Shown here one piece after another: positions 4,961 to 62,563 of a DNA stretch of 64,000 nt. The stretch covers positions 1-64,000 of IMG/VR virus record IMGVR_UViG_3300021963_005223; one strand, written 5' to 3'. How positions within the stretch are numbered: the first letter of the stretch is position 1; every line of letters begins with the position of its first letter. The notes under the pieces are model-generated. The model searched no databases. It was not told where the DNA came from and was given only the letters and a program-made list of their open reading frames with translations. The DNA is from a virus. Made by a program: the position numbers and the translations under genes.

Positions 4961-5443
4961 ATGGGTGTAATCAACATTAATGAAGTTAAAGATTTTATCG
5001 AGTCACAGAGTCCTGAGACCAAAGTTTATATCGGTGGTGATTCTGAGCGATTTTTGATTGGAAAAGATTGGTACGCAGATTATACTTTAGTTATTGTTAT
5101 TCATATTAATGGTGACAATGGCTGTAAGATTTTTGGTGAAGTTCAACGTGAACGTGACTGGGATCAGAAACGTGATAGACCACGTATGCGATTAATGAAT
5201 GAGGTTTATAAAATCGCAGAACTATATAATAAATTACATGATGTTTTAGAGGATAGAGAAGTGCAGGTTCATTTGGACATTAACCCAGATGAAATGTATG
5301 GTTCATCGTGTGTAATAAATGAAGCTGTTGGTTATATCAAAGGTATGTGTAATGTTATTCCTATGGTTAAACCAAAAGCATTTGCTGCATCATACGCTGC
5401 AGACAGATATAAAAGTATCGCACCGAATAAAAGGGTTGCTTAA
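4961..5443 (+). CDS. RNase H-like YkuK (DUF458) family protein
   Basis: YIGGDS...VHLDIN...KPKAFAASYAAD pattern. Confidence 0.8.
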   Translation: MGVININEVKDFIESQSPETKVYIGGDSERFLIGKDWYADYTLVIVIHINGDNGCKIFGEVQRERDWDQKRDRPRMRLMNEVYKIAELYNKLHDVLEDREVQVHLDINPDEMYGSSCVINEAVGYIKGMCNVIPMVKPKAFAASYAADRYKSIAPNKRVA

Positions 5444-6180
5444 TGATAAAATATAATGTTGATGTATATGATGATATTGTACCAGAAGACTTACGATGGT
5501 CTGTTTGGGAATACATTCAAAATCAAACATTCCACGGAACGAGGAAGGATATCTCTTATCCAAACCCTGGATCTGCTATCTACTACAAACCTATCGAAAA
5601 CAAAAAAGAATATCTTGATGATACAGTTCCATCAGTGAACAATCAATATATTTATCGTTGTGTGTTTGGCAATTCAGATAATGAAGTTGAGTTTCGTCAC
5701 CCAATTATTTGGAAACTCTGGAAAACTATTAACAAGCATTTGGATAACAGATTCTCTATTTCTGGCGATGAGGAAGGAATAGCAGATAAATCACTTAAAT
5801 ACCCATTCTCTCGTTGTTATGTGAATGCGCAACCAGAAGAAACCATTAAAAGATCTCATGGTGTTCATCGTGATACCATCGACATGAATGAGACCAAAAA
5901 CTTCACGTTACTTTATATTGCAAACCTACAGTGGTATCCTACTTGGATGGCAGAGAATGTATTTTTCTCTGATGATGAAACTACCAGTGATACCCAACAA
6001 TTTCAAAAAGGTTTGGGACAATCTCGTGGTTTCCCAGTTGGAGAACCATTTAAAATTGTAACACCAATGGCAGGTAGAGTTATTCTTTATGATGGTAGAA
6101 CGCTACATACAACAAAACCTTGCGCACCATGGGCAGAACACATGCGGTATGCTGTTGTCTTTAGGATTAGAGAAAAATAA
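5443..6180 (+). CDS. 2OG-Fe(II) oxygenase
   Basis: HRD (HxD)...GRVILYDGRTLH...RYAVVF. Confidence 0.8.
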   Translation: MIKYNVDVYDDIVPEDLRWSVWEYIQNQTFHGTRKDISYPNPGSAIYYKPIENKKEYLDDTVPSVNNQYIYRCVFGNSDNEVEFRHPIIWKLWKTINKHLDNRFSISGDEEGIADKSLKYPFSRCYVNAQPEETIKRSHGVHRDTIDMNETKNFTLLYIANLQWYPTWMAENVFFSDDETTSDTQQFQKGLGQSRGFPVGEPFKIVTPMAGRVILYDGRTLHTTKPCAPWAEHMRYAVVFRIREK

Positions 6181-49081: not shown

Positions 49082-52000
49082 ATGATCGATTTCAATACCG
49101 AACCATATAATGACGATTACGACGAGAACAGTAAATTCTATAGAATTTTGTTCCGTCCAAGTTTCGCTCTACAGGCTCGTGAATTAACACAATTACAATC
49201 TATCCTTCAGAAACAAATCCAGCGTCATGGAGATAATATCTTCAAACAAGGTTCAATGGTTCTGCCTGGACAAATATCGATTGATACTAATGCACAATAT
49301 GTTAAATTGCAGCCATTATATAATGGCGTAGCTGTAGAAACATTTTTATCTAATCTTAAAGATAAAGTTATTGTTGGTTCAAATAGCAGCCTGACAGCAG
49401 AAGTTATCAAAGTTCAAAGTGCTGAGCAAACTGAGCCATCAACAATTTATGTTCGTTATAAAAATTCTGGAAGCAACAATACAACTAAAGTATTTGCTGC
49501 AGGAGAAGTAATTACAACAGAAGATACTCAATATTCTTTCCAAGCTATAGCAGATACCCCAACTGGAATGGGTTCAATTGTTTCCATTGAACGTGGTGTT
49601 TATTACGTTAATGGTTTCTTTGTTCTAGTTGGCGCACATTCTATTATTCTTGACAAATATAGCAACACACCATCATATCGTGTTGGATTGAATGTAGAAG
49701 AAAAAATTGTTACTCCTGAAGAAGATGCAACTTTATTGGATAATGCCCAAAATAGTTTCAACTATGCTGCTCCAGGTTCTCATCGTTATTATATCGATTT
49801 AACTCTAAAGAAAGTTTCTTTAGAGTCAGCTTCTGACGCCAACTTTATTGAATTGCTACGTGTTGAAAATGGTGTCAATAAAAAGATTACTACTAAGACA
49901 GAATATTCTGTTTTAGAACAAACACTGGCTCGTCGCACTTATGATGAGTCTGGTGATTATACTGTAAGAAACTTCAATATTGATATTCGTGAACATCGCA
50001 CAAATAATCGTGGCGCATGGATACAAAATACTGCATTCTTAATCGGCGACGTTGTCACTAATGCTGGTAAAACATATGTAGCTAAAAATAGTGGAACTTC
50101 TGTTACAACTGCTCCAGTACATACTACTGGTACCGCATATGATGGTCCAGGATCTACTGGTATTCAATGGGAATATACAACAACACCAGTTTACAATCGT
50201 GGCATCTACAAAAATGGTGATGAGTCTAAACTTGCTATCGGTTTAGAGCCAGGAAAAGCATATGTTCGTGGATATGAGATTGAAAAGATCGCCACAGAAT
50301 ATGTTGCTATTAACAAATCTCGTGAATATTCTCAGGCAGATAATGCTTTTATTTCTGCAGAAATAGGTAATTATGTTGTAGTCAACAATCTATGTAAGAT
50401 TCCTCCAATCGGAACTAATGCTGTAGTTAATCTGAGAGATCAATTAACTGCAACACGTGGAACTGAAGCAGGATCTATCATTGGTACTGCACGTGTTCGT
50501 GGTATAGAATGGGACAATGGATCAATTGGATCTACTACAGCATCATATAAGTTATTTTTGTATGATATCAATATGGCCAGTGGTAAACAGTTCTCTAGAA
50601 ACGTTAAATCGTTTGGATTGACTTCAACAGGATTTACTGCTGATGTTAACCCAATCACTACACCATTAATTGGTTCTGTTACTGCTGCTGGAACAACTGT
50701 TACTGGTAATGGAACTTCTTTTTTAACAGATTTAATTGTTGGTGACTATATTTACGTTAACAACGCATCATATAGAATTACTGCAATCGCTTCTCAAGTT
50801 TCATTAACAATATCTGCTTCTCTAACTGCAACAAACGCAGCATATAGTTTAGTCAAAACTAACGTGTTAGCAACTAATCTAGAGAAGTCTTTATTCAGTT
50901 TACCATATAGCACAGTTCGTTCTTTAAGAAGTGCATTATCAACGAATGATACTTCTTACACAGTTTCAGCATTATACAGCGAAACTGTAGCTTCAGGTAA
51001 TATTAACTTGAATGCTGCAGCAGGAACTTTTGCTTCTGGTTCTGTCACTGGAAACTTTATTGTGACTAGAAATGATAATGGTGATATTATTCCTATTAAC
51101 AGTGTAACAGTAACAGGAAGTTCTGCCACTATTAACGTTGGCACATTATATAATGGTGTTACTTGTACTATTGTTGGAACATTAAACAAAACTGGTTCTA
51201 GTTCTACAGAGAAAACTAAAACACACGTTACTGGTGCGACTAAAACATTTACAACTTTAACAACAGTTTCTCCAACAACATTATCTTTAGGTAAAGCTGA
51301 CTGCTGGAAGATTAACAGCGTTAAAATGGATTCTGGTTCTTTTGCATCCCCAACAGGTTCTTATACTATCGATATTTCTGATCGTTATGAATTTGATAAT
51401 GGTCAAAGATCAACCCATTATGATCTTGGTAGAATTGTATTAAAAGATACATACGCTCCACCATCTGCACCTATACAAGTAACTTTTGAATATTTTACTC
51501 ATTCAGTTGGAGATTATTGCAGCGTTAATTCATATCCTGCAACTATTTCATATTCAGAAATTCCAGCAGAATTAAGAGATGGTTTAGACTTCCGTCCAAG
51601 AATTGATGACGATGGCATTAACTTCAGCACGGTAACTCAATTACCAAGACGTGGTTCTAACATAACTACAGACTTTACTTATTATTTGTCCAGAAAAGAA
51701 AAAATTGCTGTTGACATAAATGGTAATTTCTTTAATATTTCTGGAACATCATCTATTAATCCAGGTGATGCTGAAGATTCTTCAACAGGAATGATTCTTT
51801 ACAAACTAACTCTTTCTCCTTATACTTTTGATACTACAAGCAACAATATTAAAATTGAATCTGTTGATAATAGACGTTATACAATGCGCGACATCGGTAA
51901 ATTAGAAAAGCGTATTGATAACTTAGAATATTACACTTCACTTTCGTTACTAGAACAACAAACTGAGTCTTTAAAAATAACAGACTCTACTGGTCTAGAC

Positions 52001-55000
52001 AGAATGAAGAATGGATTTATAGTTGATAACTTTACAGGTCACGGTATCGGCGCAGCTGATTCTGTAGACTATCGTTGTTCAGTTGATATGAACAAAGGTG
52101 AGCTACGCCCATTCTATACAATGAAAAACGTCAATTTAATTGAAAAGGCATCTACTAATGCTGCTCGTTCAGCAGCAAAATATTCACAATATGGAGATGT
52201 TATAACTCTTCCAATCTTAGAGAATGTTCCGTTAATTAAACAACAGTTTGCTTCTCGTTTAGAAAACATCAATCCATTTGCAGTATTCACTTTCCTTGGT
52301 GATGTTAAACTAAATCCTCAAACTGATGACTGGTTTGAAACTGAACGTCGTCCAGATATTATCAATAATATAGAAGGTAATTTTACAACAATCAATACTC
52401 TTGCTGAAAAAGCTGGAGCATTGGGTACTGTTTGGAATGCTTGGCAAACTCAATGGACTGGTCAACAAGTTAGTGGAACATTTGGTTTTGCAAACGCAAA
52501 TTCTGGTTCAGTTAATTTCGGTGGAGTATTTGGAACTGTTAGCGCAAACTTTGGTAGCAGAGGTGGTGGTGCACGTCGTTGGGTTACGGCAGAACTAACA
52601 GCCACTCAAGTTGGTCAAACACGATCAGGTATCAAAACTGATATTGTAGCAAAAATTGATAAACAAATTGTTGCCGATCGTGTATTATCAACAGCTGTTA
52701 TTCCATATATTCGTTCTAGAAATGTTTTAGTTCAAGTTCGTGGTTTAAAACCATTAACACGTTTCTACCCATATTTTGATGATGTAGATATGTCTGCGTA
52801 TTGCACGCCAGCATCCAAAATTACTTATACATCAACTAGCGGAACATTTGATGCTACAACAAACGTAGGTGGTATCGCTACTGAAGAAGCACGACGCATT
52901 AATGGCGATTCTCAAGTTTGTTTGAATCGTGGTGATTATATTAGAGGTGTTACAAGTAATGCTACTGCTGTTGTAATTGGAACTGAAACGGATTATGACA
53001 CTAATACTAAATCTTTATTTGTTGTAAACATAAAGGGAACATTCCAGAATAATGAACAAATTACTGGTTCTGTTTCTAATGCAGTTGGAGTTATTAACTC
53101 CATCACTGTAAATGCAACAGGTGGAAATCTTGTAACTAATAAGAGTGGCGATGTTAATCTACTATTCTTTATTCCAAATACAGACTCAGTTCGTTTCCGC
53201 ACTGGCTCACGTGAGTTTAAACTTGTAGATAGCTCTACTGCAAATGGCGCATTTACTTCTCGTGGTCGTGCTCAATATAGAGCAGAGGGTATCGTTGAAA
53301 CTAAACAAGCAACTGTAAATGCAGTACGTAATGCTGAGTTGGTTCAGAACGTAGTCGAAGATAGCAGAACTATTATTGAGACATCTTCACGTGTTCTATC
53401 AGACACAGGTTGGTATGACCCTCTTGCACAAACATTCTTGATCGACAACAAAGGTGGTGCATTTTTAACTAAGGTCGACATTTTCTTTGCAAGTAAAGAT
53501 ACTGCTATTCCTGTCACTTTGGAAATTCGTGAAGTTATAAACGGATATCCAGGTAAGCGTGTTTTACCATTCTCACGTGTAACTCTACGTCCAGAGCAAG
53601 TAAACATTTCAACTAACACAGTTGATTTAGATGGAGTAGCAACTCCTACATTTGATACTCCAACATCGTTTGTGTTTCAATCTCCTGTTTATGTTCAGGA
53701 TGCATCTGAATATTGTATCGTTTTAATTTCAGATTCTAACAAATATAAATGTTGGATTTCTCAGTTGGGTGATACTGTCCCAGGAACAAGCAGAACTATT
53801 TCTGAACAACCATATCTTGGATCGCTATTTAAATCTCAGAATGCTTCAACATGGACAGCAGATCAAACTCAAGATTTAATGTTTACAATATACAAAGCTA
53901 AATTTGATATATCTGGAGTTGGAACAGTTCAGTTTGTTAATGATGTTCTTCCTTATACCACATTAGATACAGATCCATTCCAAATGACTGCTGGATCTAA
54001 TATTATTCGTGTATGGCAAAATAATCATGGTTTAACAGATGGTTCTAAAGTAACTATCTCTGGTGTTTCTGGAACATTAAATGGTATACCTGCTGCAGAA
54101 TTAAATGGAACATGGTTTATAAGTAATATTGACGTTGATTCTTATACAATTACTACAACAACCACAGCAACTAAGACTGGCTATTATGGTGGAACTACAG
54201 TAAGAGCTACTGGACAGGTTCAATATGATTCAGTTATGCCAGTTGCTCAAGTTCAAAATTTCTCAGAAACTTCTACAACATATTCATTGAAAACTACATC
54301 TGGAAGATCAGTTGATGGTTCTGAAACTCCATATGTTCAGGATATTTCTTTCGGTGCTTGTTTAGTTAATGAGAATAACTATTTTTATAGCCCACGTTTA
54401 GTTTCTTCTGAAATAAACGAAAATACATTTACTGGTGGCAATAAATCAGTGACTTTTGCTATAAACTTATCTTCAACTAATAATTCTTTATCGCCAGTTT
54501 TAGATACACAGCGTATGAGTTTGATTGCTATTTCCAATAGAATTAACTCTCCTTCTCATACCAATACCAATGTAACTCCAACTGACTATACTCAGTTATT
54601 TACTGGCGCAACGGGAGCATTTAGCTTCTCTGGCTCTACAATAACTTCCACTGTTTCTGCAGTTAGAAATTTAATGCAGACTATCGGTATTGGTCAATTT
54701 ATTAGAGTAGAGGGAACTACAACTGCTGGAAACGCTGGAACTTATCTTGTAACTGATGTCATCGACAATGGAAGTAATTGCACGATTACTGTTTCTGGAG
54801 TAACATTTACTTCTGAAAATGCGGTTACTGGAACTATAGTTTCTACAGTTAACCTGTTTACAGACGAGATTGCTCCAGTAGGATCTTCAACGATTTCCAA
54901 GTATGTTTCCAAGACTATTAAATTGGCTCTTCCATCTACATTCATGAAGATCAGGTATTCAGCCAATATTCCAAACCAGTCTGACGTTTTAGTTTATTAT

Positions 55001-55231
55001 AAGACTATTTTGGGGTCTTCGGGTAATATAGATAAGACTAAATATACTTTAGCAACCCCTATTTCAACACCAACTAAAGTTGAAAATGGAAATGAAAGAT
55101 TCTATGATGTGGACTACTCTTTAAATAATTTGAATCCATTCGATACTGTTCAGGTCAAGTTAGTTATGAAGTCTACTAATACATCTGCAGTTCCAAGAAT
55201 TAAAGATTTAAGAATTATTGCATGCGCATAA
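49082..55231 (+). CDS. large virion structural protein (VrlC / DUF4815-like)
   Basis: PYNDD..FRP..QARELTQLQ, ARRTYDESGDY, RYTMRDIG, DPLAQTF, LFKSQNASTW. Confidence 0.85.
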   Translation: MIDFNTEPYNDDYDENSKFYRILFRPSFALQARELTQLQSILQKQIQRHGDNIFKQGSMVLPGQISIDTNAQYVKLQPLYNGVAVETFLSNLKDKVIVGSNSSLTAEVIKVQSAEQTEPSTIYVRYKNSGSNNTTKVFAAGEVITTEDTQYSFQAIADTPTGMGSIVSIERGVYYVNGFFVLVGAHSIILDKYSNTPSYRVGLNVEEKIVTPEEDATLLDNAQNSFNYAAPGSHRYYIDLTLKKVSLESASDANFIELLRVENGVNKKITTKTEYSVLEQTLARRTYDESGDYTVRNFNIDIREHRTNNRGAWIQNTAFLIGDVVTNAGKTYVAKNSGTSVTTAPVHTTGTAYDGPGSTGIQWEYTTTPVYNRGIYKNGDESKLAIGLEPGKAYVRGYEIEKIATEYVAINKSREYSQADNAFISAEIGNYVVVNNLCKIPPIGTNAVVNLRDQLTATRGTEAGSIIGTARVRGIEWDNGSIGSTTASYKLFLYDINMASGKQFSRNVKSFGLTSTGFTADVNPITTPLIGSVTAAGTTVTGNGTSFLTDLIVGDYIYVNNASYRITAIASQVSLTISASLTATNAAYSLVKTNVLATNLEKSLFSLPYSTVRSLRSALSTNDTSYTVSALYSETVASGNINLNAAAGTFASGSVTGNFIVTRNDNGDIIPINSVTVTGSSATINVGTLYNGVTCTIVGTLNKTGSSSTEKTKTHVTGATKTFTTLTTVSPTTLSLGKADCWKINSVKMDSGSFASPTGSYTIDISDRYEFDNGQRSTHYDLGRIVLKDTYAPPSAPIQVTFEYFTHSVGDYCSVNSYPATISYSEIPAELRDGLDFRPRIDDDGINFSTVTQLPRRGSNITTDFTYYLSRKEKIAVDINGNFFNISGTSSINPGDAEDSSTGMILYKLTLSPYTFDTTSNNIKIESVDNRRYTMRDIGKLEKRIDNLEYYTSLSLLEQQTESLKITDSTGLDRMKNGFIVDNFTGHGIGAADSVDYRCSVDMNKGELRPFYTMKNVNLIEKASTNAARSAAKYSQYGDVITLPILENVPLIKQQFASRLENINPFAVFTFLGDVKLNPQTDDWFETERRPDIINNIEGNFTTINTLAEKAGALGTVWNAWQTQWTGQQVSGTFGFANANSGSVNFGGVFGTVSANFGSRGGGARRWVTAELTATQVGQTRSGIKTDIVAKIDKQIVADRVLSTAVIPYIRSRNVLVQVRGLKPLTRFYPYFDDVDMSAYCTPASKITYTSTSGTFDATTNVGGIATEEARRINGDSQVCLNRGDYIRGVTSNATAVVIGTETDYDTNTKSLFVVNIKGTFQNNEQITGSVSNAVGVINSITVNATGGNLVTNKSGDVNLLFFIPNTDSVRFRTGSREFKLVDSSTANGAFTSRGRAQYRAEGIVETKQATVNAVRNAELVQNVVEDSRTIIETSSRVLSDTGWYDPLAQTFLIDNKGGAFLTKVDIFFASKDTAIPVTLEIREVINGYPGKRVLPFSRVTLRPEQVNISTNTVDLDGVATPTFDTPTSFVFQSPVYVQDASEYCIVLISDSNKYKCWISQLGDTVPGTSRTISEQPYLGSLFKSQNASTWTADQTQDLMFTIYKAKFDISGVGTVQFVNDVLPYTTLDTDPFQMTAGSNIIRVWQNNHGLTDGSKVTISGVSGTLNGIPAAELNGTWFISNIDVDSYTITTTTTATKTGYYGGTTVRATGQVQYDSVMPVAQVQNFSETSTTYSLKTTSGRSVDGSETPYVQDISFGACLVNENNYFYSPRLVSSEINENTFTGGNKSVTFAINLSSTNNSLSPVLDTQRMSLIAISNRINSPSHTNTNVTPTDYTQLFTGATGAFSFSGSTITSTVSAVRNLMQTIGIGQFIRVEGTTTAGNAGTYLVTDVIDNGSNCTITVSGVTFTSENAVTGTIVSTVNLFTDEIAPVGSSTISKYVSKTIKLALPSTFMKIRYSANIPNQSDVLVYYKTILGSSGNIDKTKYTLATPISTPTKVENGNERFYDVDYSLNNLNPFDTVQVKLVMKSTNTSAVPRIKDLRIIACA

Positions 55232-55476: not shown

Positions 55477-56649
55477 ATGGCGACACTCGTTTTAAGACAA
55501 ACTAAGGGACTACCCCTTACCAACGCTGAAGTTGATGGGAACTTTACCAACTTAAATGATGAGTTGGCGACCAAACTTCCTTCCACCTCATACACTGCAG
55601 CTGACGTTTTAACAAAAATTAAGACTGTAGATGGAACAGGTTCTGGTTTAGACGCAGACCTTTTAGATGGTCTAAGCACTAGTTCAACCTTACCAGGAAT
55701 TGTGGATAAAAGTTCTGTTGTGACTCGAGACACATCTGGTAATACTGCCCTAAACCAATTATCGCTTACTGGTGCATTATCTGGTACAACTGCTACATTT
55801 AGTGGTGGTGTTTCAGTTGGCTCAATCACTATAGCAGGTGGATCCATTCCAGTTTCTGCTGGTGGTACAGGAGCTACAACTGCTCAGAATGCAAGAATAA
55901 ATTTAGGTTTGGTTTTAGATACAGACGTTCAAGCGTATAATTCAAATTTACAAGCATTATCTGCTGCTTCACCAGCAGCAGATAGATTACCATATTATAC
56001 TGGTGCTTCCACTGCAGCTTTAGCAACTTTCACTTCTTTCGGAAGAACTTTAGTTGCTTCTACTGACGTTTTTGCTGCAAGAACTAATCTTGGTTTAGTT
56101 TTGGGTACTGACGTACAACCTTTCTCAGCTGAACTTTCTTCTGTAGCTGGTTTGTCGACTACTGGTATAATTATCAGAACTGGTGCTGGAACCAAAGCAA
56201 CAAGAACTATTACAGGAACAGCTGGAGAAGTTGTTGTAAGTAATGGTGATGGTGTAGCTGGAAACCCAACATTAAGTCTTGGTACAGGTATTGCAAAATT
56301 ATCTGCAAATAACACCTTCGCTGGAACTAACACTTTCCAAGTAATTTATGCAACTGAAGTTAATACAACCTCAGACGAAAGACTGAAAGAGAACATCCAA
56401 ACGCTAAATAATGCTGTGGATATTGTTAATAGTTTGCGTGGCGTAGCCTATATTAAGGGTGGCAAAGCAGAACTTGGTTTGATAGCTCAAGAAGTTGAAC
56501 AGGTTATCCCTCAAGTTGTTGGGACAGATATGTCTGGTTATAAAACCATCGCCTATGGAAATATGGTTAGTATATTGGTCGAAGCTATCAAAGAACAACA
56601 AAAAACAATTAGAGAATTAACTACTCGTTTAGAGAAACTGGAGAAATAA
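55477..56649 (+). CDS. tail fibre protein with C-terminal S74 intramolecular chaperone
   Basis: LDADLLDG, ARxNLGL repeats, SDERLKENI, GLIAQEVE. Confidence 0.88.
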   Translation: MATLVLRQTKGLPLTNAEVDGNFTNLNDELATKLPSTSYTAADVLTKIKTVDGTGSGLDADLLDGLSTSSTLPGIVDKSSVVTRDTSGNTALNQLSLTGALSGTTATFSGGVSVGSITIAGGSIPVSAGGTGATTAQNARINLGLVLDTDVQAYNSNLQALSAASPAADRLPYYTGASTAALATFTSFGRTLVASTDVFAARTNLGLVLGTDVQPFSAELSSVAGLSTTGIIIRTGAGTKATRTITGTAGEVVVSNGDGVAGNPTLSLGTGIAKLSANNTFAGTNTFQVIYATEVNTTSDERLKENIQTLNNAVDIVNSLRGVAYIKGGKAELGLIAQEVEQVIPQVVGTDMSGYKTIAYGNMVSILVEAIKEQQKTIRELTTRLEKLEK

Positions 56650-56650
56650 T

Positions 56651-57031
56651 ATGGCAATTCATGCAGCAACTGGATTTAAAAGATCTGATGGAACAGATGT
56701 AGTAAACCTGTTCTGGAACTACTATGATGCAGGTAACAGAAACTATACTGAAGGTAATGGTAACTGCGGATGGAACTGTGCATGTAATAACTGTAATTCC
56801 AACTGTAACTGTAACTGCGGTAACTGCGACGCTGGAGATATTTCTATTAACGTAGCTACTACCGATAGACGTATTAACATGTTCCGCAACACTGCTTATG
56901 CAGACGGTATCCGTCACGACAATCAAGATAACACTTTAGGTGGTTTCCAATGGTTCCGCACAAACTGTAACTGTAACTGTGCATGTAACTGTAATTGCGC
57001 TTGCGACTGTGCTTGTGCTTGTGCATGTTAA
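56651..57031 (+). CDS. Cys-rich (Xaa-Cys)n protein, candidate rSAM substrate
   Basis: 19 Cys in two clusters. GGAG RBS, 1 nt after the fibre stop codon. Confidence 0.8.
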   Translation: MAIHAATGFKRSDGTDVVNLFWNYYDAGNRNYTEGNGNCGWNCACNNCNSNCNCNCGNCDAGDISINVATTDRRINMFRNTAYADGIRHDNQDNTLGGFQWFRTNCNCNCACNCNCACDCACACAC

Positions 57032-57045
57032 TGGAGACAGAATAA

Positions 57046-57975
57046 ATGTTTAAAATTATTAAAACTCAAATTACAGCATCTTTAAAAGAAGGTTCTGAGA
57101 TTGGTATAAATGCCAATTATAGAACAACAATGGGCTATAATTCTGAAGACAAAACAATTTCAGTAAAAGTAGAAAAATTAAACAGACCAGATTTGACTCG
57201 TGAAGAAAATTTGGAAGTAACATACACAGAAGTAGCTTCTAGAATATTTGGTTTAGAAGATTTTCCACAAAATACTGATAACATAACTTGGTTCACTGAG
57301 TATGATGTTGAAGCAAATAAAATTTCAGATCCGATTGAGATTTGGGATTGGGTTGCTACATTACAACAAAAGACTCCTCCTGCTCCAAATGTTCCATATA
57401 CTATCGGTTCTTTACAAACAGACTTCGCAGCTCACTTTACGCCAAAAATACTTCCATTATTTCATTTAGGTTCTTTCAATAAATCAGTTGAAAATTTTGA
57501 AGGTTCATTGTTACAATTTTACGTAACAAATGCAGACCAAACTACATTGGCTCCACATGATACAATTTTAACAGATCCAAATCTAGAAGTTAAAACTTCA
57601 TTAGAAAAATCTCAGTGGAGTAGTATCAATATTTTACCTATGCTTTCATACAATTTACTAGACGCTAATGGAGATGTAGTTGAAGTTGAACAGACTAAGA
57701 TGGTAACACCTCGTCACCAAAAAGTAACTTTACCTAAAGCTGATGAATATTCTGTTAGAATTAACTTCACTAAACCTGCATTTAAAAATATTTCCAATAC
57801 ATATAATGTTTCAGTGGTTAATGGCGGAATTAATAAAAATAGGATTGTAATTTCAGAAGGATCTTCTGTTGTTCTAGTTAATGCACGTGGACTAAATTCT
57901 GGAGACTTCGTTAAAGTTAAGCTAAATATTGGAAAGTATAATAGTTTCGGTGAATTCTGGATTAATATTCAGTAA
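57046..57975 (+). CDS. hypothetical protein
   Basis: GGAG RBS, no recognisable motif. Confidence 0.7.
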   Translation: MFKIIKTQITASLKEGSEIGINANYRTTMGYNSEDKTISVKVEKLNRPDLTREENLEVTYTEVASRIFGLEDFPQNTDNITWFTEYDVEANKISDPIEIWDWVATLQQKTPPAPNVPYTIGSLQTDFAAHFTPKILPLFHLGSFNKSVENFEGSLLQFYVTNADQTTLAPHDTILTDPNLEVKTSLEKSQWSSINILPMLSYNLLDANGDVVEVEQTKMVTPRHQKVTLPKADEYSVRINFTKPAFKNISNTYNVSVVNGGINKNRIVISEGSSVVLVNARGLNSGDFVKVKLNIGKYNSFGEFWINIQ

Positions 57976-58045
57976 ATTTGAACTAATAATTTTGAAATAA
58001 ATACTCGATATCTTGTCGAGTATTTTAAATAATTTAAAGGTGAAT

Positions 58046-59521
58046 ATGAGTAAATATAGATTAATTCTACAGGGTTCTAATGATGTAAAAGAAGTTTTGG
58101 TTTATGATCCAATAACTTCTGAAATGGTTTGGGAAGAATCTGGGGAAAGACCATCCTTGCAGCATTTGGGTCAAGATATCGAATATAAAGTTACAGCATC
58201 AAAACAGTGGAAACCATTTAAGGTTACCAATCCACACGACCCAGATCTGCATGGTCGTAAATCCAAAAAGCCAACAACATTAAAAATTACCATGGGTCTT
58301 AAGTGCAATTTTAAGTGCACTTATTGTAACCAAGCTCATCAGCCACACGATCCAGTTGGTGGTCCAGAAGATGCGGATGATTTAATCCAAAAAATCAAAA
58401 CAAACTTTGAACTTGGAACTTATGACCCAGTAAGAATCGAATACTGGGGTGGAGAACCATTTGTTTATTGGAAAACTTTAAAACCACTATCTGAGAAATT
58501 GCGTAAAGTGTATCCAAAAGCACAGTTTACTATTGTTACCAATGGTTCTATGTTAGATCGAGAAAAAGTCGACTGGCTAAACCAGATGGGATTCTCAGTA
58601 GGTATGTCTCATGATGGTCCATTGCATGCTCAAAATCGTGGACCAGATCCATTGGATGATCCAAAGATGCGTTTCGGTATCGCTTACGCATTAAAAACTA
58701 TGGGTCAAATGCGTTTTTCTTTTAACGCAGTTTTAACAAGAGAAAATGTTTCTTTAGCTGCAGTAAGAAACTTTATTCTTGATAAAATTAACCAAAGACA
58801 TCCAGATTACCCTGATCAACCTGGTATTGATCAGCGAGAAATTCATGTTACCACTGAAGAATTGCTGTTACCGTATGACGATGATGGAATGAAACATTCA
58901 TTGGTTACTCCAGATGAAAAGAAGATGATTCTTCATAACCTTTTCTGGGAAACAATTAATCAAAGAAATGAGTTTAGTTGGACTGTGCATAGTAAAATTA
59001 AAAACTTTTTTGACAGTTTGATTAATCAAAGACCTGCTGAGGCTCTTGGTCAAAAATGCGGTATGGATAGAGAAGACAATATTGCGATTGACATGAAAGG
59101 TAATGTAACCACTTGCCAAAATACTTCTTCTTTGACTAAACACCATATTGGTAACATTGAAGATTTTGATAATATTCGTTTAACTACTTCATACCACTGG
59201 AGTACTAGAAGTGAGTGTCCAAGTTGCCCAGTAGTTCAATTATGTCAAGGTGCTTGTTTATTCTTAGAAGACAAGTATTGGGAACAAGCGTGTGAAAACT
59301 TGTTCTATTATAACTTGGCGATGCTGGCTTCTTCTCTGTTTATACTTACAGGAGGTCTTGTACTAGTAGAAGTACAAGGAGAAAAGATAAGAAACGAAGG
59401 AATCACTTCGATACCAGTTATTGATATTAATTTTGTCAAATCTGATGGTAAAGAAACTTCCTGGAAAGTTCGTAAACCAATCGGTATTCCAGTTGTAACA
59501 GTTCCAGTTGGCTTGCAGTAA
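58046..59521 (+). CDS. radical SAM protein with SPASM domain
   Basis: CNFKCTYC (CxxxCxxC), WGGEP, SHDG, CPSCPVVQLCQGAC (Cx2Cx5Cx3C). Confidence 0.93.
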   Translation: MSKYRLILQGSNDVKEVLVYDPITSEMVWEESGERPSLQHLGQDIEYKVTASKQWKPFKVTNPHDPDLHGRKSKKPTTLKITMGLKCNFKCTYCNQAHQPHDPVGGPEDADDLIQKIKTNFELGTYDPVRIEYWGGEPFVYWKTLKPLSEKLRKVYPKAQFTIVTNGSMLDREKVDWLNQMGFSVGMSHDGPLHAQNRGPDPLDDPKMRFGIAYALKTMGQMRFSFNAVLTRENVSLAAVRNFILDKINQRHPDYPDQPGIDQREIHVTTEELLLPYDDDGMKHSLVTPDEKKMILHNLFWETINQRNEFSWTVHSKIKNFFDSLINQRPAEALGQKCGMDREDNIAIDMKGNVTTCQNTSSLTKHHIGNIEDFDNIRLTTSYHWSTRSECPSCPVVQLCQGACLFLEDKYWEQACENLFYYNLAMLASSLFILTGGLVLVEVQGEKIRNEGITSIPVIDINFVKSDGKETSWKVRKPIGIPVVTVPVGLQ

Positions 59522-59861
59522 TATGTCTTTTTTGAAGTGCAAAATCTGGCTGGTTGAGCAATATCCAAGATATGGGTCTAATTATAATTTGTTCCCAATA
59601 TCTGATATTATAGATTATGATTCTGATAATACATTTTATGACTATAAAGAAGATAAATCCCAGCATTTTATAAATATGATGGTTCCAGAATTTGAAATTT
59701 ATGCAACAGAAGAACAGATTGAAATTTTAAATAAATATACTGAAGAGATTATCAGTAAAAAGATTCCGATACTTAGAAATGTGCAAAAGGGTGATGTGGA
59801 GTATTGGATGATAGATACTACATTTTTAGACTATCATCTTAAAACAAAAAATATCCAATAG
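59508..59861 (+). CDS. hypothetical protein
   Basis: ORF fills the gap. Start uncertain. Confidence 0.5.
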   Translation: MACSNMSFLKCKIWLVEQYPRYGSNYNLFPISDIIDYDSDNTFYDYKEDKSQHFINMMVPEFEIYATEEQIEILNKYTEEIISKKIPILRNVQKGDVEYWMIDTTFLDYHLKTKNIQ

Positions 59862-59870
59862 GAGAAAAAA

Positions 59871-60818
59871 ATGAATGCAAAACATGTTAAATGGGTCATT
59901 GCACATGAACCTATCGGCTTGTTTCTTAAAGTAGCGGATCGTTTCGCTACAGAAGTAAACGAGAAGACTGGTGGAATGTTCAATATTGAAGTTTTATCAT
60001 TGTCAGATTATTCTGCAAAATATAACGATGGCAAAAAGATCACTAAAAATGAGTTAATGACTTTAGTTGATTCTGGTGCTATTGAAATGAGCCACATCTA
60101 TACTACTTGGTTAGCTGATTATAATAAAGATCTACATGCTTTAGATCTACCTTTCTTATTCCGTGACCACGATCACGCTGATGCAGTTCTAGAAGGTGAA
60201 ATTGGTACTGAGTTGTTAGCTGGTGTATCTAAGAATTCTAATATTCACGCTATGTCTTTCACTTACTCTGGTGGTTATCGTGTTGTTCCAGCTAACTTCC
60301 GTGCTGATACTGTAGAAGCATGGAGAGGTCAAGCTGTTCGCACTTCACGTTCTCCAGTAGCTGTTGAGACATTTAAGTTACTAGGTGCTGAGCCAAAAGA
60401 GCACATCGCTCTAGAAGAAATGAATGAATATGCAGATAAAGGTGAAATTGCTGCTGGTGAATCAACTTACGTTCGCATTTTCCCACTAGATCAGTATAAA
60501 TCTTTTAAAGTTGTTAATGACACTGCTCATAGCTTGTTCTTAACTTCTATTATTGTTAACAAAGACTTTATGGCTCAGTTTGACGAAGAAACTCGAGAGA
60601 TTCTAGCTACTGCTGCATTTAATGCTGCTCGTGTAGAGCGTCGTGAATCTGTAGCTGACATTCCTAACATCTTGGCTGAATGTCAAGAAAAAGGTGTTGA
60701 AGTTGTTCGTATGTCTACTGAAGAACAGAAGAAGTTCCAAGAAGTTACTTCTGCTGTTTATGAAAAGTTTGCAGACTATTTCACTCCAGGATTAGTGCAG
60801 AAAATTAAGTTACAATAA
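59871..60818 (+). CDS. dctP: TRAP transporter solute-binding protein (DctP family)
   Basis: EVNEKTGG, LDLPFLFRD, RTSRS, FKLLGA, TAHS. Confidence 0.85.
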   Translation: MNAKHVKWVIAHEPIGLFLKVADRFATEVNEKTGGMFNIEVLSLSDYSAKYNDGKKITKNELMTLVDSGAIEMSHIYTTWLADYNKDLHALDLPFLFRDHDHADAVLEGEIGTELLAGVSKNSNIHAMSFTYSGGYRVVPANFRADTVEAWRGQAVRTSRSPVAVETFKLLGAEPKEHIALEEMNEYADKGEIAAGESTYVRIFPLDQYKSFKVVNDTAHSLFLTSIIVNKDFMAQFDEETREILATAAFNAARVERRESVADIPNILAECQEKGVEVVRMSTEEQKKFQEVTSAVYEKFADYFTPGLVQKIKLQ

Positions 60819-60884: not shown

Positions 60885-61937
60885 ATGACTATGAATAAAG
60901 AATGTTTATATTATAATTGCTATAATGTTCCAGAAGTAATACAAGCTGGAGATAAAAGTATTGAACCTTATCTATCACCAGATTATTCAGATAAAGTTTT
61001 CCAGTTTTATAGAAAATATAAAATGGATTTGACTAATGTAGTATGTGATAGAATGGATATCCTTCCACATTATATTAACATAAAAAAGAATCAATTTCCA
61101 CTACCAAAAATTGAGCCAGATTTTAATATGTCTTTTGCTGAGTGCGTTGAAAAACGAGCAAAAGAAATTTTGGCACTCAATAAACCAATAACGGTAGTTT
61201 GGAGCGGTGGTATTGATAGTACACTTGTAATATTTTCACTGCTTCAATTTTGCAATGACCCATCACAAATTACTGTTTATGGAACTTATAACTCTATTGT
61301 AGAGTCTGGTGATGTATTTGAAAAATATATCCTGCCAAGGGGTGTCAAATATCAGTTTGCAGTATCATCTAGAAAATACTTTAAAGATGATACACAAATC
61401 TATATCTCTGGTTTTATGGGTAATCAATTATTTGGACCAGTTGATGATTTTTCATATTCAAAAGCTACATTGTTTCATCACCATCTTAGAGGTAATGGTG
61501 ATATTGAAGATTCTTACGAAACTGTGTTGACTGAAGAGATGCACGAGTTTTTATTACCTGCACTTAAAGCCAGTCCAAAGAAAATAGAAACTGTTAGAGA
61601 TTTACGCTGGTTTGGTATTTTTATGTTAGATTGGCACCAGTCATATTATGATATTTTAATCAAAACAAAAAATTATGATAAAGTTTATCATTTTTTTGAT
61701 GATGCTGATATGCAAAAATATTCTATGACAACAAAAGAGCCATACACAAAAGTAAAGGGAAACCCTCTGACCCATCGCTGGGTCATGAGGGAATTAATTG
61801 AAGAGTGGGGGAAGTGCTCTCACTATGCTTGGAACAAACCAAAGAGTATATCAAACTTGGCCAATAGAGCTGCTGACTGGTATTTTATAATGCCAGATCA
61901 TAGTTTGATTACTCCAAACAATATTAAATTTAATTAG
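60885..61937 (+). CDS. asparagine-synthetase-like PP-loop ATP pyrophosphatase
   Basis: WSGGIDST, ISGFMGNQLFG. Confidence 0.7.
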   Translation: MTMNKECLYYNCYNVPEVIQAGDKSIEPYLSPDYSDKVFQFYRKYKMDLTNVVCDRMDILPHYINIKKNQFPLPKIEPDFNMSFAECVEKRAKEILALNKPITVVWSGGIDSTLVIFSLLQFCNDPSQITVYGTYNSIVESGDVFEKYILPRGVKYQFAVSSRKYFKDDTQIYISGFMGNQLFGPVDDFSYSKATLFHHHLRGNGDIEDSYETVLTEEMHEFLLPALKASPKKIETVRDLRWFGIFMLDWHQSYYDILIKTKNYDKVYHFFDDADMQKYSMTTKEPYTKVKGNPLTHRWVMRELIEEWGKCSHYAWNKPKSISNLANRAADWYFIMPDHSLITPNNIKFN

Positions 61938-62563
61938 TAATTAACAAACCCAACATAAACATTTAAGAATACTTGTGCTTGGTCTGATAAATTAGTTTCA
62001 ACGTAGCGTTGCAAATATCCTGGAGTGACAACAATTTCACCAACACGAGCACGAATTCCATAGTTTGTTGCAACTAAACCATTAGAAACCAGTTGGCGAA
62101 TTGTTTGGACTCCACCTCTTGTATCAGCGAAATATGTGTTTGGTGGGAACTGTCCTGTATGCAAAACGAATGTTAAAATTAGAGGAACGTGTTCATAGCA
62201 ATGTAATGGTACATGCTCTTGTGGCTGTTGGAAAAATACGCTAGAACCAAGGATCTCGGGCAATCTCTTTAGATCTTGATTTTCTTTATCTTCAAATTCT
62301 TCTAATTGCTTGCAAGTACTATATACGAACCCTCTAAATTTTTCTACTAGTGGGTTGTCAATACCCATAATATTTACATTCCCAGTTTCATTATTATGCT
62401 GGTTGTAAATAGCTAAAAATTCATTGAGTTCTTCTTCATTTAAATTAAAAGAAAAACAGCGCAAAGGTGTTGGGAAAAGTGATTTTTCGAATGTTTTTGT
62501 CACTTCAATAGAAGTTTCTTGACTTGTAGAAACTTCAGTCTGGGGTTGTTGATTTTCTTGCAT
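61934..62563 (-). CDS. 2OG-Fe(II) oxygenase-like protein (possibly degenerate)
   Basis: LFPTP N-terminus, DTRGG, GEIVVTPGYLQRYV. Confidence 0.55.
   Translation of the reverse strand: MQENQQPQTEVSTSQETSIEVTKTFEKSLFPTPLRCFSFNLNEEELNEFLAIYNQHNNETGNVNIMGIDNPLVEKFRGFVYSTCKQLEEFEDKENQDLKRLPEILGSSVFFQQPQEHVPLHCYEHVPLILTFVLHTGQFPPNTYFADTRGGVQTIRQLVSNGLVATNYGIRARVGEIVVTPGYLQRYVETNLSDQAQVFLNVYVGFVNY

Follow-up and report, generated by a model that had tools for sequence, protein, structure and literature searches.

A cysteine-tailed protein encoded beside a phage tail fibre as a putative fibre tip and candidate substrate of a co-encoded radical SAM/SPASM enzyme

What is the role of a small phage protein that ends in 11 consecutive Xaa-Cys pairs? 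The question is raised by a gene in a 64-kb stretch of viral DNA (hereafter, the window), which belongs to a record that is an 81-kb fragment. This gene encodes a 126-aa protein with 19 Cys (15% of its residues), divided between one 8-Cys cluster and the terminal Xaa-Cys pairs, the same two clusters that the earlier note on this DNA had described. Its features are as follows.

56651..57031, + strand: Asn/Cys-repeat gene, ATG start, TAA stop, 126 aa, 19 Cys
56666..56710, + strand: N-terminal motif ATGFKRSDGTDVVNL, residues 6-20
56762..56827, + strand: Cys cluster 1, residues 38-59, NCGWNCACNNCNSNCNCNCGNC, 8 Cys
56963..57028, + strand: C-terminal tail, residues 105-126, NCNCNCACNCNCACDCACACAC, 11 Xaa-Cys units, the last residue being the last Cys

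The N-terminus (MAIHAATGFKRSDG...) lacks a hydrophobic leader, in agreement with the absence of a signal peptide noted earlier. Four or more consecutive Xaa-Cys pairs occur in this ORF alone among the ORFs of the 64-kb window, and the 81-kb record contains no NCNCNC site besides 56651..57031. Searches at permissive thresholds with the protein or its alignment gave no match in Pfam, NCBIfam, PHROGs, or PDB sequences. The protein atlas and tblastn against deposited phages likewise returned no match, and, as neither Pfam nor PHROG gave a match of any sort, nothing places the protein in the T4/T2 gp38 adhesin family by sequence. The AlphaFold2 monomer model, built from a 28-sequence alignment, was uninformative (pLDDT 42).

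Conservation of the ORF in related genomes, on which the earlier note had made its reading depend, was found in 10 proteins of the protein collection and at 24 loci in viral contigs, with both Cys clusters kept. In cluster 1, C39, C43, C45, C54, and C59 are invariant and C56 is nearly so, and the non-Cys blocks ATGF[KR]xSxGTDL, TDxRINxFRNT, and GIRHDxQD are kept as well. All Cys of the shared tail are invariant with free codon usage (133 TGT and 61 TGC in 21 genes), and AAC/AAT and GCA/GCT likewise interchange in tail codons across relatives; within the window gene itself, TGT/TGC, AAC/AAT, and GCA/GCT are all present, as had been claimed. Tail length differs by whole Xaa-Cys units (7 to 11 in aligned relatives, 9 to 11 in full-length genes from viral loci), and dN/dS relative to the window gene is 0.11–0.29, synonymous sites being nearly saturated. 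These data identify a genuine gene under purifying selection, and the combination of invariant tail Cys, varying codons, whole-unit length changes, and these dN/dS values bears out the earlier proposal that the repeat is no microsatellite but is preserved as protein sequence. Asn in the tails is mostly encoded by AAC (121 AAC to 26 AAT in 21 genes), and the 2049-aa gene at 49082-55231 favours AAT (105 AAT to 46 AAC).

The stand-alone form makes up a small family found in one clade of freshwater phages, whose genomes are about 170 kb to judge by the largest contigs. Among 1.84 billion representative proteins, a profile search found only three clusters of this family; the fibre-fused forms described below are too divergent or compositionally biased for such a search. 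The window phage recurs in metagenomes of 12 studies, from freshwater, lake, estuary, and marine-labelled samples. Contigs from a metatranscriptome library that are 100% identical to the window span the whole 126-aa ORF, which is compatible with its expression, DNA carry-over also being possible.

The 126-aa gene is closely packed with its neighbours. The stop codon of the fibre shaft lies 1 nt before its start, GGAG is found 8–11 nt upstream of its ATG, and the following 309-aa gene starts 14 nt past its stop and is also preceded by GGAG. The surrounding genes are listed below (other loci in the comparison are cited by their L numbers).

55477..56649, + strand: tail-fibre shaft, 390 aa, with a C-terminal self-cleaving Peptidase_S74 chaperone (PF13884, E 3.7e-13, residues 299-348) and matches to many PHROG tail-fibre families
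57046..57975, + strand: accessory protein, 309 aa, without Cys, with beta-sandwich domains
58013..59521, + strand: radical SAM/SPASM enzyme, 502 aa, the proposed Cys-tail maturase
59508..59861, + strand: small protein, 117 aa, conserved in the clade and in L098
59871..60818, + strand: DctP-type solute-binding protein (PF03480, E 5e-40)
60885..61937, + strand: 350-aa protein with faint asparagine synthetase/PP-loop similarity (NCBIfam E 0.025-0.031, below cut-offs)
61934..62563, - strand: convergent gene, 209 aa

Starting from the 2049-aa structural gene, the order is therefore 2049-aa, 80-aa, shaft, Cys protein, 309-aa, enzyme, 117-aa, DctP-like, 350-aa, and convergent 209-aa, and it is retained in all of the 24 clade loci that reach far enough; L018 and L023 carry about 4 kb of additional genes between the accessory gene and the enzyme. 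A promoter and terminator scan gave no more sites than in shuffled sequence and was uninformative on the operon. Family searches gave no match for the 117-aa protein, and a Pfam search gave none for the 350-aa protein. The DctP-like protein is among the best conserved of the block (74–89% identity across the clade) and occurs outside the clade in L098 only, and the 350-aa gene is distributed in the same way; the DctP-like and PP-loop-like genes, being restricted to the clade of the window plus L098, were ruled out as core parts. The DctP-like gene (59871-60818) sits among late structural genes, and no dctQ or dctM was found among the neighbouring genes scanned.

The convergent 209-aa gene has an orthologue in L001 (41% identity, E 3e-50) that matches an oxygenase-cluster HMM (E 2e-5). 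The window gene itself does not match this HMM at E 0.01 and has no Pfam match, and BLASTP comparison with the oxygenase of other loci was not significant; the L001 orthologue weakly suggests that it may be a divergent tailoring enzyme of the 2OG-Fe(II)-oxygenase type. A weak match to the oxygenase-cluster HMM (E 6e-5) was also found for a 245-aa ORF at 5443-6180 of the window, which has no Pfam match and lies far from the fibre module.

Because synteny within a single clade proves little, we examined the linkage between tail and enzyme outside the clade. Enzyme homology (35–50% identity) yielded 159 loci, comprising 79 viral contigs and 80 bacterial genomes; the bacterial loci are mostly prophages of Alpha- and Betaproteobacteria (e.g., Limnohabitans, Ferrovibrio, and Rhodospirillaceae). 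An ORF with four or more Xaa-Cys pairs is present in 122 of the 159 loci. Where at least 3 kb of upstream DNA was available (116 enzyme loci), 106 loci have a same-strand tail ORF with at least four pairs no more than 5 kb upstream. The remaining 10 consist of two loci with a tail further upstream, four with a three-unit version, and four without a tail, three of which lie in an ABC-transporter context. The density of the Xaa-Cys motif is 0.19 per strand-kb in the 5-kb upstream zone and 0.0024 elsewhere in the same loci, a difference of ~80x.

The linkage was also found in the reverse direction. When DNA was scanned with a pattern for NCNCNCxCxC, without regard to the enzyme, 114 new loci emerged, with 84 C-terminal-tail ORFs, and the enzyme lies downstream on the same strand in 43 of the 45 tail ORFs with at least 3.5 kb of downstream DNA and in 25/25 of those with at least 5 kb. 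Of 15 short, microsatellite-like matches to the pattern, 1 has the enzyme, namely L203, where a tailed ORF is truncated by the contig end. As a control, 63 other S74-fibre loci (749 kb) were examined, and the enzyme, accessory homologues, and Asn-Cys tails were all absent from them. The DNA pattern also caught an unrelated family of ~90-aa Cys-rich ORFs (...FLNCCVRLVNCNCNCICNCISACNVSC...) at L192, L195, L245, L284, and L288, with no radical SAM enzyme within the DNA examined at these loci.

Cultured phages carry the module as well. Enzyme homologues of 35–41% identity occur in unrelated cultured phages, always within the fibre module. In Achromobacter phage JWF, the fibre gp028 contains NCNCDCNCNCSC (...KPRQNCNCDCNCNCSC in context) and then a Hint domain (Pfam) that begins at residue 307-308, directly after the Cys tail; gp029 comes next, and then the enzyme, gp030. 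Ralstonia phage RSP15 has a side tail fibre, ORF048, that terminates in ...NTNCQCGN, and its enzyme, ORF045, comes after two intervening genes of unknown function. The counts given above, which derive mostly from metagenomic contigs, many of them closely related, and are not independent events, show together with these phages and the prophages that a Cys-rich candidate substrate is co-encoded with the enzyme beyond phylogenetic inertia (106/116, 43/45, and 0/63). The (Asn-Cys)n-tailed protein, the beta-sandwich accessory protein, and the radical SAM/SPASM enzyme constitute a triad, and its members co-occur almost without exception.

Tail anatomy was described from 179 unique tails. These comprise 4–14 Xaa-Cys units (mode 5), the 11 units of the window protein being at the high end, and Xaa is Asn in 67%, Ala in 16%, and Asp in 9% of all positions, with Asn exceeding 91% in the first three. 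The tail is preceded by an aromatic/Arg/Thr strand (e.g., FRT, YRNT, NCRT). In 47% of the tails the protein stops exactly at the last Cys, and in 16 a Hint domain follows, cleavage of which would give the same end. The Hint-tailed fibres are those of L026 (3679-5130, JWF gp028), L042, L053, L057, L136-L140, L143, L145, L199, L246, L261, L278, and L298, and in these the last Cys of the tail abuts the Hint catalytic Cys (...DCxC/CFPAGT, with the slash at the junction). Carriers of the tail range from 67 to 730 aa and in most loci are true tail fibres of 300-730 aa; they include proteins that have the T7 tail-fibre N-terminal domain, collagen triple-helix repeats, and matches to many PHROG tail-fibre families, and the tail is therefore located at the distal end of trimeric fibres.

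The remainder of the 126-aa protein also has counterparts in these fibres. The motif ATGF[KR]xxDGTD opens the Cys-rich C-terminal tip domain in the long fibres of L037, L040, L125, L051, and L060, which upholds the earlier suggestion of a fibre-like N-terminal motif, and an HMM of residues 1-37 matches ~90-130 residues before the tail in L133/L134/L141, L040, L037, L125, and L068. In long fibres, this motif marks the junction of shaft and tip domain: ARATGFKIADGTDIGEL is found ~130-170 residues before the end and is followed by NNCxG...NGNC...WWTWG...DEIGG...NNCNCGxFNCYSNCNCNC. Cluster 1 of the window protein corresponds to the pre-tail NNCNCGxFNC block of the fibre-fused versions, and the order of elements is the same, with about 45 extra residues between the Cys blocks. 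A Cys-free protein of 199 aa (P0012, from the representative library) contains three tandem copies of the TGFRxSxGxDLxxLF motif with which the 126-aa protein begins, a motif that has no Pfam family.

A direct connection between the two forms is provided by L098, a locus syntenic with the window in which the 2049-aa, DctP-like, 350-aa, and 117-aa proteins all have homologues. The fibre encoded there shares 54% identity with the window shaft over residues 2-267 (E 1e-75) and ends in ...YQWAYNCNCVCNC, without an S74 domain and without a separate small gene. Because L098 fuses shaft and tail, the elements follow the same order, and the HMM matches fall at the shaft-tip junction, we read the 126-aa protein as a tip domain split off as its own gene, that is, as a stand-alone form of the fibre-end domain. 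The shared order of motif, pre-tail Cys block, and tail, together with the L098 fusion, shows homology with the C-terminal end of true tail fibres. At L105 (4573-5504), three small genes in tandem (95, 92, and 115 aa) begin alike, with an N-terminus of the type M(A/S)TTLGNG(I/V)VTFGDGT, and each end in an Asn-Cys tail; this trio lies upstream of the accessory gene and the enzyme and resembles a multi-copy set of exchangeable tips.

A tail at the C-terminal end of a trimer might be explained by disulphides, in that the Cys runs would form interchain bonds that aid trimer assembly or lock the tip while the enzyme acts elsewhere, for example on the accessory protein. The C-terminal cysteine annulus of the P22 tailspike is a proposed aid to trimer assembly (PMC3357383), and Cys-assisted assembly and disulphide networks are known in phage tails (PMC3357383, PMC10811340). 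This explanation is nevertheless quite improbable: the 309-aa accessory protein of the window lacks Cys and would hardly suit an enzyme of the SPASM type that acts on Cys, the tail and the enzyme would have to occur together so strictly by coincidence, and the >91% Asn in the first three units is left unexplained.

The same geometry would suit a metal-binding tip. With Cys at every second position, the thiols of an extended strand lie on one face, and the carriers are trimeric fibres with collagen repeats, so that the alternating Cys faces of three parallel tails might hold a column of metal ions or iron-sulphur clusters with no covalent modification, the enzyme being otherwise employed. The needle of the T4 long tail fibre, for instance, binds iron through His-x-His repeats. 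The earlier note had offered a metallothionein or metal-cluster protein as an alternative, and as a main reading this finds no support, since no metallothionein or other metal-binding family was matched and neither the near-obligate two-way linkage to the SPASM enzyme nor the accompanying oxygenases would be explained. The usual partner residues of Cys in metallothioneins are Lys, Ser, and Gly, whereas here they are Asn, Ala, and Asp. We consider metal binding in place of modification unlikely, although metal binding and covalent modification of the tail could occur together.

The 502-aa enzyme itself is a clear member of its superfamily, matching PF04055 (41.5 bits, cut-off 29.5), the SPASM family TIGR04085 (37.1 bits, cut-off 27, residues 349-419), and phrog_1802 (E 7.7e-63). 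In a 7-sequence alignment, the CxxxCxxC motif (C98/C102/C105) is invariant, as are C349, C368, C402, C405, C411, C415, and C427 in the C-terminal part, which make up the full SPASM Cys set. Relatives number >570 in viral contigs and 213 in bacterial genomes. Among named families, the enzyme comes closest to PapB, sulfatase maturase, nif11/geopeptide maturases, QhpD, CcpM, and CteB. All of the scores compared with NCBIfam cut-offs (in bits) are far below them (PapB 69/340, CteB/SCIFF 42/425, QhpD 48/453, CcpM 46/500, and anSME 62/349), and the enzyme therefore represents a new subfamily. Its alignment to the sulfatase maturase, which forms formylglycine, is about as good and covers almost the entire enzyme.

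The accessory family has one homologue per locus in 127 loci (iterated HMM), including RSP15 ORF047, and in other loci its gene almost always directly follows the tailed gene. The AlphaFold2 model of the window protein (pLDDT 89, pTM 0.85) consists of beta-sandwich domains and has generic Ig-like structure matches only (Foldseek TM about 0.2; VIA Z of at most 8.8, tied with many unrelated entries). The assignment of a function from the fold was dropped, given that only such generic matches were found.

Additional genes occur between the accessory gene and the SPASM enzyme in other loci. These encode 2OG-Fe(II) oxygenases in 58+5 loci, a second radical SAM enzyme in 15+1 loci, and an unknown family shared with RSP15 ORF046. 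The second radical SAM enzyme, of ~340-356 aa, is encoded just upstream of the SPASM enzyme in its 16 loci, for example at L037 (5981-6997), L044 (5962-6984), and L169 (4361-5431). A pair of fatty-acid-desaturase-like genes for membrane proteins (PF00487) occupies this position in four loci, namely L018 (10299-11806), L023 (10107-11617), L034, and L078, which lie in a sub-branch of the clade of the window.

We propose that the 126-aa protein forms a fibre tip and that the enzyme acts on its Cys tail, probably cross-linking it by thioethers, a reading to which we assign a probability of about 0.6 on the strength of sequence and gene-context comparisons. In its favour are the near-obligate two-way linkage, the spread among cultured phages, the fibre carriers, the L098 fusion, and the invariant Cys. 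Further support comes from the SPASM Cys set of the enzyme, whose nearest named families are Cys-modifying peptide and protein maturases, and from the typical tailoring enzymes that accompany the module elsewhere (2OG oxygenases and a second radical SAM enzyme). Against it stand the enzyme scores, far below the cut-offs of all named maturase families, the comparable alignment to the sulfatase maturase, and the lack of a recognisable leader-binding (RRE) domain.

Under this proposal, the 126-aa protein would be produced late, in one operon with the upstream S74-type fibre shaft, as a free-standing version of the Cys-rich tip domain that elsewhere mostly forms the C-terminal end of a trimeric tail fibre. 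It would dock on the shaft once the S74 domain is cleaved off and would then be a component of the virion. From the gene neighbourhood, the Asn-Cys tail, and probably the first Cys cluster as well, would be modified by the radical SAM/SPASM enzyme encoded two genes downstream, with the beta-sandwich protein encoded in between probably acting as a helper or structural partner. The likeliest chemistry would be a thioether from the Cys sulphur to a carbon of an adjacent Asn, Asp, or Ala residue, either inside a single chain or bridging the three chains. The thioether is favoured because its formation is the commonest chemistry of sacti- and ranthipeptide enzymes and QhpD on Cys-rich substrates; formylglycine formation or epimerisation may be the alternative. 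In this manner, the fibre would gain, where it binds the host, a redox- and protease-proof ladder in place of 19 oxidation-prone thiols.

An enzyme set that resembles a RiPP cluster, beside a small candidate substrate, might also indicate that the 126-aa protein is a RiPP precursor with a long leader, from which a peptide is cut off and released without becoming part of the virion; the three tandem tailed genes of L105 (92-115 aa) would then be comparable to multi-copy precursors. We regard this as very improbable. In most loci the tail ends a true tail fibre of 300-730 aa, in L098 it is fused to the shaft, and the 126-aa gene is translationally close-packed in a late structural operon. No leader protease and no exporter or transporter was found among the conserved neighbours, self-cleaving Hint or S74 modules being present instead, and the three loci in an ABC-transporter context lack the tail. 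Whether a released peptide, a disulphide zipper, or metal binding alone is assumed, either the linkage to the enzyme or the fusion to the fibre is left without an explanation.

The known roles of radical SAM/SPASM enzymes lie in the maturation of small peptide antibiotics and of a few enzyme subunits. If one of them is indeed dedicated to fibre ends, the proteins of virions would undergo a type of chemical tailoring that is undescribed in the searched literature, in which we found no paper describing a module of a radical SAM enzyme and an Asn-Cys fibre tail. We give even odds to the broader view that many phage lineages cross-link, after translation, the fibre ends that bind the receptor by RiPP-type radical SAM chemistry, that the Asn-Cys ladder, thioether-linked or modified in another way, would be a new class of virion-protein modification, and that the 126-aa protein would be a modular, exchangeable tip. 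This bears on the survival of fibres in oxidising or proteolytic settings, on host-range determinants, and on new protein-stapling enzymes. The module is widespread and present in cultured phages (Achromobacter JWF and Ralstonia RSP15), making it directly testable, and the version in the window is handy in that the tip domain is a separate 126-aa gene, a convenient candidate substrate.

Among known systems, ranthipeptide and sactipeptide maturation (PapB-freyrasin, CteB-SCIFF with PDB 5WGG, and NxxcB-NxxcA) is alike in that a SPASM radical SAM gene adjoins the gene of a Cys-rich substrate. PapB is the best NCBIfam match of the window enzyme (E 3.9e-19) and CteB its second-best PDB match, and Asn and Asp are both known as Cys-thioether acceptors in such systems. 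Here, however, the enzyme would act on a protein of 67-730 aa that forms a virion fibre or fibre tip, in place of a short exported peptide, and Cys occupies every second residue in place of the CxxxD or NxxC spacing. The module described here is also phage-encoded, lacks a leader protease or exporter, and has a conserved beta-sandwich partner.

QhpD/QhpC of quinohaemoprotein amine dehydrogenase would be the nearest precedent for modification of a structural protein instead of a released peptide. QhpD is a SPASM radical SAM enzyme that introduces Cys-to-Asp/Glu thioethers into a subunit that stays in a larger assembly, and its family TIGR03906 matches the window enzyme at E 8e-13 (48 bits, cut-off 453). 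The two systems differ in substrate sequence, in biology, and in context, dehydrogenase genes being absent here. The anaerobic sulfatase-maturating enzyme (anSME, PDB 4K36-4K39) aligns to the window enzyme almost from end to end, the SPASM part included (residues 93-415), and the JWF enzyme homologue has been deposited under this name. The target motif of anSME is C/S-x-P/A-x-R, whereas the tail lacks this motif and no sulfatase is present.

With regard to the fibre, the S74 chaperone, the P22 cysteine annulus (PMC3357383), and the His-x-His iron needle of T4 gp37 are similar C-terminal devices that lock or assemble trimeric adhesins, but they have neither a dedicated radical SAM enzyme nor an Asn-Cys ladder. 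What is new here is that the pairing of a SPASM maturase with a Cys-rich substrate, of a known kind, would be applied to a virion fibre.
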